Source: an uncultured Dehalococcoidia bacterium (GTDB lineage: Bacteria; Chloroflexota; Dehalococcoidia; UBA6926). Taken from it: 64,000 bases of DNA. The stretch is taken from assembly GCA_964653005.1 (NCBI GenBank), contig CAZZAN010000001.1:237898-301897 (forward strand), in the 5' to 3' direction. A program made the translations under genes and the position numbers. Shown here piece by piece: positions 2,231 through 57,983 of the stretch (its first letter is position 1; each line of letters starts with the position of its first letter). The notes below the pieces were generated by a model, which was given only the letters and a program-made list of their open reading frames with translations, ran no database searches and was not told where the DNA came from.

Positions 2231-3391
2231 ATGCCTGATCCGATTATCGAACCGCAGGACGCCATCGCGGCTGAGGTGCGCCGGTGGGTCGACCGGGAGG
2301 TTGTCCCGGTCGTTGATGAGCTTGAGCACAACAACACCTTCCCGGACCAACTCGTGCAGGGGATGCGGGAGCTCGGCCTGTTCGAGTTGATGATTCCGCA
2401 GGAATACGGCGGTATCGGCGCAACATATGTGAGTTATTCCGGCGTGGTTGAGGAGTTGGCACGGGGGTGGATGAGCCTCGGCGGCATCCTGAATACCCAC
2501 GTCATCATCACGCACCTTGTCGCCTCTTACGGCACCGATGACCAGAAGCAGCGTTATCTGCCGCAGTTGGCGACGGCTGAGCGGCGCGGGGCGCTGACGA
2601 TTACCGAGCCGAACGCAGGGTCCGACGTGCAGGCGATCCAGACCGTGGCCGTGAAGGATGGCGACGATTATGTGGTGAATGGCTCCAAGCTGTTTGTGAG
2701 CAACGGACGGCGCGGCGGCCTGTTCGCAATGGCCGTCAAGACGGACCCCCATGTTGATCCGCGCTATCGCGGCATCTCCTGCCTGCTGGTGCAGCCGGAT
2801 TTTGAGGGCTTCAACGTTACGCGTGACATTGAAAAGCTGGGTTACAAGGGCATCGAAGCGTCTGAACTGTCGATGGACGATCTCCGAGTGCCCGCGAGCA
2901 ACCTGCTTGGCGGTGAGGAAGGACAGGGATTCTTCCAGATTCTGAGCGGCGTTGAGGTGGGTCGTGTTAACACGGCGGCGCGAGCCGTTGGTGTGGCGCG
3001 TGCGGCATTCGAGGCCGCCGCCACGTATGCTCAGCAGCGGCAGGCGTTCGGCAAACCCATCGGAGAGCACCAGGCCATCCAGCTCAAGCTGGCGGATATG
3101 TATACGAATATCACCGCGGCGCGTCTGTTGGCGCGGTGGGCCGCAGGCGTCAAAGACCAGGGCGGGCGCGCCGACACTGAAGTCGGCATGGCCAAGCTGT
3201 TCGCGACGGAGGTCGCGACGCAGGCGACGCTGGAATCCATGCGTATCCACGGCGGGATAGGCTATACGAAGGAGATGCCGGTGGAGCGGTTCTTCCGTGA
3301 CGCGCCCGGCATGATGATCTATGAGGGCACAAACGAGATTCAGCGGACAATCATCGCTCGAAGTGTGTTGCAGCGGTACGCGGTGAATTAA
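2231..3391 (+). CDS. Acyl-CoA dehydrogenase (short/medium-chain type)
   Basis: 386 aa. ACAD motifs are present: ...GALTITEPNAGSDV..., C-terminal ...IYEGTNEIQR... Confidence 0.85.
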   Translation: MPDPIIEPQDAIAAEVRRWVDREVVPVVDELEHNNTFPDQLVQGMRELGLFELMIPQEYGGIGATYVSYSGVVEELARGWMSLGGILNTHVIITHLVASYGTDDQKQRYLPQLATAERRGALTITEPNAGSDVQAIQTVAVKDGDDYVVNGSKLFVSNGRRGGLFAMAVKTDPHVDPRYRGISCLLVQPDFEGFNVTRDIEKLGYKGIEASELSMDDLRVPASNLLGGEEGQGFFQILSGVEVGRVNTAARAVGVARAAFEAAATYAQQRQAFGKPIGEHQAIQLKLADMYTNITAARLLARWAAGVKDQGGRADTEVGMAKLFATEVATQATLESMRIHGGIGYTKEMPVERFFRDAPGMMIYEGTNEIQRTIIARSVLQRYAVN

Positions 3392-8725: not shown

Positions 8726-10369
<1,644 letters not shown>

Positions 10370-50081: not shown

Positions 50082-50282
50082 TCAGACGGTCTTTAGCTGG
50101 AGGTTCTCGAGGTCGACCTGCCGAGAATCTTTGGACAGGTACAGCACCTCAATGCCAACAACCTGCTTCTGCTCGTTGTAGTCCAGGATAACGCCGGGGG
50201 CGACTTCTTCTGAGCCGATAATCTCTGATTCACATAGACCCAGGTAGAGGGCGTCGGCTTCCTTATCAATACGCAGTTTCAT
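50082..50282 (-). CDS. DUF2283 domain protein
   Basis: About 66 aa from MKLRIDKEADALYLGL... The start overlaps the stop of the upstream DUF4258 gene. Confidence 0.6.
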   Translation of the reverse strand: MKLRIDKEADALYLGLCESEIIGSEEVAPGVILDYNEQKQVVGIEVLYLSKDSRQVDLENLQLKTV

Positions 50283-50536
50283 CTGTAACCCCTCATCCTC
50301 CAATCGAAGTGCACTGTCACAACCCGCCAAGGATCGACACTCGTGTTGACGACTACACGAAAGTATGTGTCGCTATCCGGCACTTGGCCATAGAATCGCT
50401 CAAGCTCCGGGTCTATAAGGTCCGGCAAACGTTGAACTGGATCCGCTACAGCCCTTTGAACCCATTCTATGCGTATGCCCTGTTCTGTCATCCTTTCCCG
50501 TGCGTGGACTGTGTACACAAGCTCCGGCAGATCCAT
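50279..50536 (-). CDS. DUF4258 domain protein
   Basis: About 85 aa from MDLPELVYTVHARERMTEQGI... Confidence 0.6.
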   Translation of the reverse strand: MDLPELVYTVHARERMTEQGIRIEWVQRAVADPVQRLPDLIDPELERFYGQVPDSDTYFRVVVNTSVDPWRVVTVHFDWRMRGYR

Positions 50537-54188: not shown

Positions 54189-55960
54189 GTGCTTACCACG
54201 CAGATTCTTACCCCCAAGCAGTTATTCCAGAAAGACGTTCACTACACCATTCCGGACTTCCAACGGCCGTACGTATGGTCGCAGGAAGACCAGTGGGAGC
54301 CGTTGTGGAGCGACTTGCAGAATGTTGCGGAAGACTATCTTGAGCGCCGCGCAGAGACTGTAGACGCCGTAGAGGCTCAGGCCAAGGCGAGGGCACACTT
54401 TCTTGGTGCTATCGTCATGCAGCAGGTGCCAACACCCGCAAAGGACATCGAACGCAGAGAGGTGATCGACGGGCAGCAACGCGTCACTACGATTCAGTTG
54501 CTGCTGGATGCCACGCAAGAGGTCTTGGAAGAGCGTGGGCATCGCTTGCAGCTAGACGGCTAGCAAAGTATGTGCTGAACGACAAGGATCTTGTAGAGGA
54601 TGCCCCCGAACAGCATTTTAAACTGTCGCCCACCCGAGGAGACCGGGAAGCGTTCAAGCACGCGATGGACAACGGACTCGCCGTAAGCGAGTTTGAGGAT
54701 TCGTTGCTTGTTCAAGCCCACGAGTTCTTTAAGGATCAGGTTAACCAGTGGCTTGAGAGTGGACTGTCGTCAGAGGAATCGATGACTGAGGCTCTTGAAA
54801 CAGCAGTCACTTCCATGTTTGAGATGGTGGTTATCGATCTCGGACTCGAAGACGATGCCAATATCATTTTCGAGACACTGAATGCTCGAGGAACGCCCCT
54901 TGAACAGTCAGACCTCATCAAGAATTACGTTCTATCTCAGTTGCCCCAAGACGCTCCGGGTCGCGAGAATATCTGGGAAGGTCTGGACAATCCGTGGTGG
55001 AGGGAGACTGTCAGGCAGGGGCGTTTGCTCAGACCTCGGCTCGATATGCTATTCAACTATTGGCTCGCCATGCGTACAGGCAGTGAGGTTCGACCACCTG
55101 ATGTCTTTCGTGAGTTCAGAAAACATGCGGAGGATAGCAACATCGCCACAATAATGCCGGATGTCCAGAGGGACCTCCAAAACTACAGGAGATATGACCA
55201 AGGGCCCCGCCCGGAGGAAATCGAATCTTTCTATTACCGGATGGACGTGATGCAGGTTGGGGTGTTCACGCCTGCACTCCTGTTGCTTCTTTCCGCTGAT
55301 AATGACTCGCAAGTGCGTGCCTTCAACGCCCTCGAGAGTTTTCTGGTGCGTCGAATGGTCTCCAGGCGAACAACCAAAGACTACAACGGCTTGGCCTTGC
55401 AACTCGCAAACAGACTTCGCAATGGCGGACTAGCGGATCCGGCAAGGACAGTTATTGACTACTTTAGGGAACAAACAGCGGATTCTCGAGAGTGGCCGGA
55501 GGATGATAGCCTGCAAACCGCCATGGTTTCTTTGCCAATCTACCGTCTATTGACAAGAGGAAGGCTGCGGCTAGTACTGGAGGGGATAGAGACATCTCTT
55601 CGATCCAATAAGGCTGAGCAGCCTGACGTGCCGCGAAATCTCACGATTGAACACCTCATGCCACTTGGATGGGAGGAGAACTGGCCTCTGTACGAACCGT
55701 ATGATCGTGAACGGCGCAACAGTCTTGTGCATACAATCGGCAACCTGACTCTGGTCAATCGGAGGCTCAACTCATCCATGTCCAACGGCCCTTGGGAGGA
55801 CAAGCGAAAGGAATTACAGGAGCATAGTGTTATGACGCTGAATGCGGAATTGAGCCACCAGGATTCTTGGAACGAAGAGGAAATCATCGCGCGCAGTCGG
55901 CGCATGGCTAATCTGATAGCCAAGTGTTGGCCCGGCCCCGATTCCTCCCGGTGGGATTAG
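54189..55960 (+). pseudogene. GmrSD-like type IV restriction endonuclease (DUF262-DUF1524) disrupted by a frameshift
   Basis: Frame A (54189-54563) carries the DUF262 motifs IPDFQRPYVW and VIDGQQRVTT, then TAG. Frame B is open from before 54545 through 55960 and carries the DUF1524 HNH-like TIEHLMPLGW...NSLVHTIGNLTLVNRRLNSSMSN. The two frames overlap, consistent with a single-nt indel near 54558. Confidence 0.65.
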
Positions 55961-56009
55961 CATTGCCTAGCCCGGTACCATGCAAAGCGGCTAAAGGGAG
56001 ACCCCCACC

Positions 56010-56360
56010 ATGCCCAACATCACCTTCTATCACTGGACAACTTGAGGGACATGCAAAACAGCGAAGGCGGCGCTTTCGCAGGCGGGGCACGAGTTTGCCG
56101 AGCGTGACTTCTTCAAGGATCGATTCACCAAAGATGAGATTGTCGAGCTTCTGAACGGGGAGCCGCCCAGCGCGTTGTTCAATCCCAGGTCGCAGGCTCT
56201 CAAGAAGGCGGGGATTGACCCGGCCTCCCTGAACGAGGAGCAGATGCTTGATCTGCTTGTCGAGGAACCGCGCTATTGGCGGCGTCCGGTGGCGGTGATC
56301 GACGGCAAGCTCATCGCGGGCGCGAACGCCAAAACCCTGGCGGCGGAACTAGGTTTCTAG
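56010..56360 (+). CDS. ArsC/Spx (YffB-like) thioredoxin-fold protein with an in-frame TGA at the first Cys of the CxxC motif: candidate selenoprotein, or a nonsense pseudogene
   Basis: ATG 56010 with an AAGGGAG RBS, reading MPNITFYHWTT-[TGA 56043-45]-GTCKTAKAALSQAGHEF... and continuing in the same frame to 56360. It aligns with YffB xIxxYGIKNCDTCKKA, placing the TGA at the first Cys. An 8-bp hairpin (GCGAAGGC-GGC-GCUUUCGC) lies at 56061-56079. Confidence 0.5.
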
Positions 56361-57425: not shown

Positions 57426-57650
57426 TTAGAGGTCCATGAATTCTTGTGGGGTTAAGCCTGCCTGCTTGATAATGTCTCGCAGAGTTCCGGTCGAGATTTC
57501 GCGATGGCGCGGCACGATGGTTGTCGTTGCGCCTCCTCCGTTCAGCTTTCTAAATTTGACGTGGCTTCCCCGTTGACTCGATTGAGAGAATCCTGCTGCG
57601 CGCAGTTTACGGACCACCTCACGAAAGGGAAGCGGCCGAATCGGCGGCAA
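57426..57650 (-). CDS. HicA-family toxin
   Basis: 74 aa. ...VRKLRAAGF...RGSHVKF... pattern. Confidence 0.6.
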   Translation of the reverse strand: MPPIRPLPFREVVRKLRAAGFSQSSQRGSHVKFRKLNGGGATTTIVPRHREISTGTLRDIIKQAGLTPQEFMDL

Positions 57651-57855
57651 TATCTACCTCGATGAGAACCTGCTTTGGGATTTTGGTAGGAACCGGGGGC
57701 TCAAAGTACAACTCCAGGGCCTCTTTCAGGTTAGCGAGAGCCTCCTCTTCGGTCTTCCCCTGGCTTGCGACCGCCACTTCGTGGGCCTCGGCGGTGAACC
57801 AGTCGCCGTCGGGATAAACACTCGCCAGGAATTGACGCTTCATTTCGACCTCCAT
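57619..57855 (-). CDS. HicB-family (UPF0150) antitoxin, short form
   Basis: 78 aa. ...FTAEAHEVAVASQGKTEEEALANLKEALELYFE. It overlaps the hicA-like start. Confidence 0.5.
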   Translation of the reverse strand: MEVEMKRQFLASVYPDGDWFTAEAHEVAVASQGKTEEEALANLKEALELYFEPPVPTKIPKQVLIEVDIAADSAASLS

Positions 57856-57983
57856 TGCGAGGCAGCCCTCACCACATCGTCAGCACCAAGTATGCCAGAT
57901 TGACGGCAGCGCTCCCGCCACTCCGCCATTCCGAGCGCAACGAGAAATCACTGGGCTCGCATCAAAGAGTAAGTGATAAGCCC

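Follow-up and report, generated by a model that had tools for sequence, protein, structure and literature searches.

A putative selenocysteine-containing protein of the ArsC/Spx/YffB family, encoded through a conserved in-frame TGA in Dehalococcoidia and SAR202 bacteria

The window analysed here, a stretch of 64,000 nucleotides (64 kb) from an uncultured Dehalococcoidia bacterium, contains a 351-nt gene with an in-frame TGA close to its 5' end (Table 1). The gene consists of an ATG, 10 further codons, the TGA, 104 codons and a TAG (56358–56360). Its translation is MPNITFYHWTT*GTCKTAKAALSQAGHEF...RRPVAVIDGKLIAGANAKTLAAELGF, and the C-terminal end was also given as EEPRYWRRPVAVIDGKLIAGANAKTLAAELGF. 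The first-pass annotation of this DNA had reported the TGA, the open frame around it and a hairpin following it, and all of its coordinates proved correct when the sequence of the window was re-read. A GGAG or GGAGG-like motif is found at an equal offset before the start codon in most of the 43 orthologous loci described below. The whole gene, including the TGA, is base-for-base identical in the loci L044 and L045, which stem from separate assemblies of two metagenomic samples (Logan SRR8304785 and SRR8304783), and a sequencing error is therefore excluded.

Table 1. Positions, within the window, of the TGA-containing gene and its sequence elements
Feature	Position	Strand	Description
Shine-Dalgarno-like GGGAG	55996–56000	+	9 nt upstream of the ATG; read from the sequence
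Putative selenoprotein CDS	56010–56360	+	116 codons including Sec12, then stop; ArsC/Spx/YffB-family thioredoxin-fold protein
In-frame TGA, putative Sec codon (Sec12)	56043–56045	+	Codon 12; first position of the U-G-T-C redox motif
Spacer between UGA and SECIS-like stem	56046–56060	+	15 nt; gapless and equal in 43 aligned sequences and in L048–L050
TGC, Cys15, presumed resolving Cys of UxxC	56052–56054	+	Invariant in orthologues (column 16) and in Cys-form homologues
Bacterial SECIS-like hairpin	56061–56079	+	Conservation, covariation and dS suppression
Hairpin, 5' arm	56061–56068	+	GCGAAGGC
Hairpin, loop	56069–56071	+	GGC
Hairpin, 3' arm	56072–56079	+	GCUUUCGC

The gene looks monocistronic. 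In the clade to which the window belongs, it is located between a gene for a family-III CoA-transferase and genes for hot-dog dehydratases, with variable inserts of defence genes upstream. In a second clade (L015–L039), the genes that follow it immediately on the same strand are mutL and one for a Ham1/RdgB-like NTP pyrophosphatase (examples are L016, 3428–5161, and L015, 5148–5807). Comparison of the loci showed that synteny is kept only within the clades, and no operon or redox partner was found to be linked to the gene in them.

Several other features of the neighbourhood were noted. The interval between the CoA-transferase gene and the ArsC-like gene, about 2000–3000 bases upstream (L002–L014 and L043; 54189–55960 in the window), holds a GmrSD-type gene in the window, a gene for a DUF4357 protein in L002, L003, L006, L008, L010 and L012, and different ORFs in other loci. 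Since the inserts differ between species, this suggests a small hotspot for defence-gene insertion. The GmrSD-type (type IV restriction) gene, which is directly upstream of the TGA-containing gene, is split into two plus-strand ORFs in different frames (54189–54563 and 54572–55960); the first covers positions 1–77 of the GmrSD_N profile, and the second covers positions 85–198 and GmrSD_C. The same split was found in the independent assembly L044, and it was therefore considered a genuine frameshift or pseudogene and not an assembly error. On the minus strand, a toxin–antitoxin-like pair of small genes (DUF4258 and DUF2283) at about 50082–50536 (genes at 9510–9964 in L044) adjoins a DinB-family gene. 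An apparent ORF-free gap at about 57426–57855 is filled by a HicB-like antitoxin ORF (57619–57855, minus strand) followed by a HicA-like toxin frame.

When the TGA was read as Cys, the protein matched the Pfam ArsC family (PF03960) with 45.1 bits and E = 1.3e-11 (cut-off 24), and the top PDB sequence matches were ArsC-like proteins and Spx (E of about 1e-8). The window protein is a member of the ArsC/Spx/YffB family (PF03960), as had been proposed in the first-pass annotation. None of the specific NCBIfam models reached its cut-off with this protein: TIGR01617 (Spx/MgsR) gave 49.5 bits against a cut-off of 75.05, TIGR01616 (nitrogenase-associated) 49 bits against 109, TIGR00014 (arsenate reductase) 31.9 bits against 106, and NF041106 (ArsC_rel_Se_1, ArsC family (seleno)protein) 22.8 bits against 85. 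On these scores, membership of NF041106 was rejected, as was the identity of an Spx/MgsR regulator, though the position of the CxxC is common to Spx and the window protein.

Residue 12, encoded by the TGA, is matched in alignments by Cys10 of Spx (PDB 1z3e, E = 1.5e-8) and by Cys12 of what we take to be the sequence of R773 ArsC. In an alignment with the same presumed ArsC sequence, Arg92 of the window protein corresponds to Arg94 of the ArsC arginine triad, Asn58 stands at the position of Arg60, and Arg107 is without an equivalent. The identity of a glutaredoxin-coupled arsenate reductase (R773 ArsC; TIGR00014) was rejected on these grounds and on the score. Two of the three ArsC arginines are absent, so that arsenate is probably not the substrate.

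The fold was judged on an AlphaFold (AF2) model of P0033, the nearest full-length Cys homologue. The P0033 model (pLDDT 92.8) has the ArsC/Spx/YffB fold, with TM values of 0.83–0.88 to 3f0i, 3rdw and 1rw1 and of 0.75–0.78 to Spx. In this model, the CxxC is located at the beta1-alpha1 junction, in the stretch that joins strand beta1 to the N-terminus of helix alpha1. Full-length homologues with 26–39% identity were recovered when 1.8 billion representative proteins were searched exhaustively, and Cys occupies the column of the TGA in all of those examined (18/18, CxxC), with the second Cys (C15) invariant. The placement of the TGA at the first redox Cys of a U-x-x-C motif, which had been claimed from an alignment with YffB/Spx, is thus borne out by these homologues and by Cys10 of Spx.

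A scan of species-representative genomes yielded 43 loci, all of them from Dehalococcoidia, SAR202 or Chloroflexota MAGs, with 47–95% identity to the window protein. The homologous codon is TGA in the window and in all 43 species-level loci (44/44), and neither TAA nor TAG occurs there. No Cys form was found among the 43 Dehalococcoidia/SAR202 species sampled, which are Sec-only in this respect. In the orthologues, the TGA is preceded by a conserved start, a Shine-Dalgarno motif and the peptide xxxxxxYHWxx. The distant relatives L048–L051 likewise have TGA at the homologous codon. In three distant relatives from other metagenomes (34–46% identity), the TGA is at the same place in the sequences HWWKN*STCQ, LYWKRT*MTCR and FYTWNR*STCN. 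A genome-wide reassignment of TGA was rejected, as this codon ends 13 of the 37 long ORFs of the window and is the stop codon of the TGA-containing gene itself in 22 of 42 loci.

Coding constraint was estimated by the pooled Nei-Gojobori method on the orthologues. The dN/dS ratio was 0.24 for the 11 codons upstream of the TGA (dS 1.55, saturated) and 0.19 downstream of it, in the region after the hairpin; such purifying selection on both sides of the TGA indicates that both sides are translated in this frame. The Tyr and His codons upstream of the TGA vary synonymously among the orthologues. The length of the gene is 115–119 codons, and 42 intact orthologues contain no other stop or frameshift. 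The only orthologue with an additional disabling lesion is L017, in which a 2-nt deletion in a G-run causes a frameshift. This deletion is located at about 3070–3080 of CBDCQG010000001.1, just after the SECIS-like hairpin (GCAGGGGGCACG against GCAGGCGGGGCACG); if it is not a homopolymer error of long-read sequencing, L017 is the sole real pseudogene among the 44 sequences.

These results bear on the possibility that the TGA is a nonsense mutation of the catalytic Cys codon in a decaying gene. TGA is one step from TGC or TGT, the adjoining frameshift-split GmrSD gene shows that broken genes occur nearby, and there is the frameshift of L017. However, 43 other species, with identities as low as 47%, have kept the same TGA, as have more distant relatives, the dN/dS values of 0.19–0.24 apply to both sides of it in orthologues that are otherwise undamaged, and the downstream hairpin is conserved and covarying (see below). 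The pseudogene reading is effectively refuted by these comparative data, and we assign it an almost negligible probability. The preference for recoding over decay, which had been expressed at first from the position of the TGA alone, now has the comparison of 44 sequences behind it.

A protein search returned 30 relatives, and all of them are N-terminally truncated (69–98 aa); such truncation is typical of gene callers that take an in-frame TGA for a stop. Every indexed public record of the subfamily is a truncated "hypothetical protein" or "arsenate reductase" of 61–100 aa without the active site (the clusters of P0001, P0004, P0021, P0022 and P0027; MYD35692.1 and MYF65164.1; ENA, JGI and Logan calls). 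Taken at face value, these annotations, shared by all 30 database homologues and by the cluster members, would mean that the real protein starts after the TGA and that the 11 upstream codons together with the TGA form an untranslated leader. But the called starts are not the same in different loci (GTG, ATG or TTG, at positions unrelated to one another), and the first in-frame start after the TGA in the window, the TTG at 56175, would delete beta1, alpha1 and the whole redox motif. The upstream codons are also under purifying selection at the protein level, the Shine-Dalgarno motif and the ATG are conserved, and the full-length Cys homologues align from residue 1. A downstream start was therefore considered highly improbable, and the translation from the ATG was retained.

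The hairpin downstream of the TGA has an 8-bp stem and a G-initiated triloop, with a calculated dG of -11.3 kcal/mol, and overlaps codons 18–23 (Ala-Lys-Ala-Ala-Leu-Ser). The energy of the 68-nt fold is unexceptional for the GC-rich context (z = -0.86 against shuffles), and it is conservation and covariation, not stability, that place the hairpin beyond chance. When 43 sequences were aligned without gaps, 99.4% of the cells of the 8-bp helix were paired, and three of the eight pairs showed compensatory double changes. None of 500 column shuffles matched the observed pairing or covariation, and registers slid along the alignment pair in only 30–70% of cells. With the three distant relatives added, four of the eight pairs are compensatory (CG/UA, GC/AU, GC/AU and CG/AU) and 98.7% of cells are paired. 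The first base of the loop is invariably G, and the loops are GGC, GGU or GUU. A Lys/Arg swap (AAG/AGG) is coupled with a synonymous Leu change (CUU/CUC), giving 17 A-U pairs, 26 G-C pairs and no mismatches among the 43 sequences. The change from A-U to G-C at pair 23:33 may in part be one event that separates two clades.

The synonymous sites of this segment are also constrained. The dS value is 0.21 within the hairpin codons versus 1.07–1.55 in the flanks, which corresponds to a 5–7-fold suppression. The stem codons are nearly frozen (GCG in 42/43, 39/39 and 37/37 cases, TCG in 42/42), and the same amino acids are encoded elsewhere in the gene by three to six codons. The hairpin can thus be regarded as a clean case of an RNA structure that constrains synonymous sites in a helix-coding segment. 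Both its position and the G of the apical loop fit the published description of bacterial SECIS elements (PMC2398784), and a downstream stem-loop with a conserved apical-loop G is what a predicted bacterial SECIS should be. The earlier suggestion of a bacterial SECIS in this place, made from one sequence, has accordingly been strengthened by the conserved pairing, the compensatory changes and the frozen synonymous sites.

The search for the Sec machinery, proposed in the first-pass annotation as a check, gave a divided answer. In the 64-kb window, no tRNA genes were found by ARAGORN, there were no Rfam matches at the gathering thresholds, and Pfam analysis of 40 of the larger ORFs revealed no SelA, SelB or SelD domains, only housekeeping, metabolic and defence genes. 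A tblastn search of the window and all loci, with what we take to be the E. coli SelA, SelB and SelD sequences as queries, gave no matches. In the flanks of the 43 loci, tRNA-Sec was not found, the only tRNA genes being those for tRNA-Leu and tRNA-Trp in L020. Thus, neither selA, selB, selD nor tRNA-Sec is present in the window or in about 270 kb of flanks. A strict CxxU/UxxC scan for a second selenoprotein gene in the window and the 43 loci recovered the target gene only; a crude scan for same-frame TGA codons was too noisy in the GC-rich DNA. One minus-strand candidate at 57882 (WHTWC*RC) was rejected, as it proved to be the leader of the HicB/HicA-like pair.

The positive part of the answer came from a relative. 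One of the orthologues (L027) is carried by contig MPMJ01000002.1 of the SAR202 cluster bacterium bin16 (MPMJ00000000), which was assigned to the SAR202 clade by Slaby et al. in 2017 (PMC5649159, Table 2). One copy each of COG1921 (SelA), COG3276 (SelB) and COG0709 (SelD) is listed for bin16, and all five SAR202 bins of that study are listed with SelA, SelB and SelD (PMC5649159, Table S4). In addition, the ten bacteria richest in selenoprotein genes in BSepDB (2026), a database that takes in only species with a Sec pathway, include two Dehalococcoidia MAGs, which have 49 and 46 such genes (PMC13326102). Because the window and flanks contain none of these genes, the presence of the machinery in the genome of the window is inferred from the orthologue-bearing relative and from the literature.

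A selenium-free read-through of the UGA was also considered, either by near-cognate Trp or Cys decoding or by insertion of the Cys-tRNA(Sec) type, with a hairpin that merely slows termination. Sec insertion is itself deduced from comparison, and the absence of the Sec genes from the window and flanks would suit such a mechanism. Against it, the offset of the hairpin and its G-initiated apical loop are as expected of a bacterial SECIS, the TGA is located at a redox Cys and forms the classic Sec/Cys pair with the homologues, a genome with an orthologue is listed with SelA, SelB and SelD, and the lineage is rich in selenoproteins. Read-through without selenium was therefore judged very unlikely, although less so than a downstream start.

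The best explanation, to which we assign a probability of about 0.93, is that the gene encodes a 116-residue protein of the ArsC/Spx/YffB type in which Sec replaces the first Cys of the CxxC motif (U12-G-T-C15) and that the UGA is recoded with the help of the hairpin. We infer Sec insertion, SelB binding to the hairpin and a catalytic cycle as follows. With the ribosome at the UGA, the hairpin 15 nt downstream would bind the SelB-GTP-Sec-tRNA(Sec) complex, Sec would be inserted in place of termination, and translation would run on to the TAG. The product could act as a small selenol/thiol oxidoreductase, with Sec12 at the N-terminus of helix alpha1 as the attacking nucleophile. Cys15 would then resolve the intermediate to give a selenenylsulfide, which a cellular reductant would re-reduce.

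ArsC-like selenoproteins were reported in 2006. "Arsenate reductase 2" (cd03032, UxxC), represented by 42 sequences with Sec and 238 homologues with Cys, was described in the GOS analysis of Zhang and Gladyshev in 2008 (PMC2398784), and an "arsenate reductase-like protein" (COG1393, UxxC) is listed in a 2022 review (PMC9312934). The UxxC ArsC-like selenoprotein is thus an established kind of protein, and its novelty had been overestimated in the first-pass annotation. The contribution of the present analysis is narrower: a Sec-only subfamily across Dehalococcoidia/SAR202 that is missed by the NCBIfam seleno-model and annotated as truncated fragments. We would suggest only tentatively, at somewhat less than even odds, that this is a distinct and apparently Sec-obligate ArsC-like subfamily that lies outside the NCBIfam models and belongs to the core genes of SAR202 bacteria from the sea and from sponges. 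There is little conceptual change, as UxxC ArsC-like selenoproteins, bacterial SECIS elements within coding sequences and Sec/Cys interchange at redox cysteines are all well established. With the annotation corrected, the selenoproteome of SAR202/Dehalococcoidia gains one member; this abundant lineage of marine bacteria and sponge symbionts was already known to be unusually rich in selenoproteins. If the interpretation is true, the uniform minimal SECIS (15-nt spacer, 8-bp stem and G-initiated triloop) could serve as a lineage-specific search template for selenoprotein genes, of which 40 or more have been reported in genomes of this type.

A comparison with known systems indicated that the closest in description is the GOS "Arsenate reductase 2" (representative MAM02162.1). 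The window protein has in common with it the ArsC-family thioredoxin fold, a UxxC motif with Sec at the position of the first Cys, a downstream bacterial SECIS, marine bacterial hosts and many Cys-form homologues. The two are likened by description, and the clade considered here is specific to Dehalococcoidia/SAR202 and Sec-only in 43 species. With NF041106 (ArsC_rel_Se_1), the window protein shares the superfamily and the idea that a member of the ArsC family can be a selenoprotein, but it is not a member of that family; annotation pipelines probably miss the gene because its score is below the NF041106 cut-off.

YffB (PA3664, PDB 1rw1) and the putative arsenate reductases 3f0i and 3rdw are about 115 residues long and share the fold, with a redox Cys near the N-terminus where beta1 and alpha1 meet. 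However, they contain Cys and not Sec, their identity to the window protein is about 22–31%, and their substrates are poorly defined. Spx of Bacillus subtilis (1z3e) also has the same fold and a CxxC at the same position, but it is a redox-sensing regulator of Firmicutes that binds RNA polymerase, and the window protein gives no sign of RNA polymerase binding. The N-terminus is strikingly similar to that of the R773/E. coli ArsC (PDB 1i9d), whose sequence we take to begin with MSNITIYHNPAC12GTS as compared with MPNITFYHWTTU12GTC in the window protein. Residue 12 is the nucleophile in this comparison, and the window protein has the second Cys of its UxxC motif where R773 ArsC presumably has Ser.
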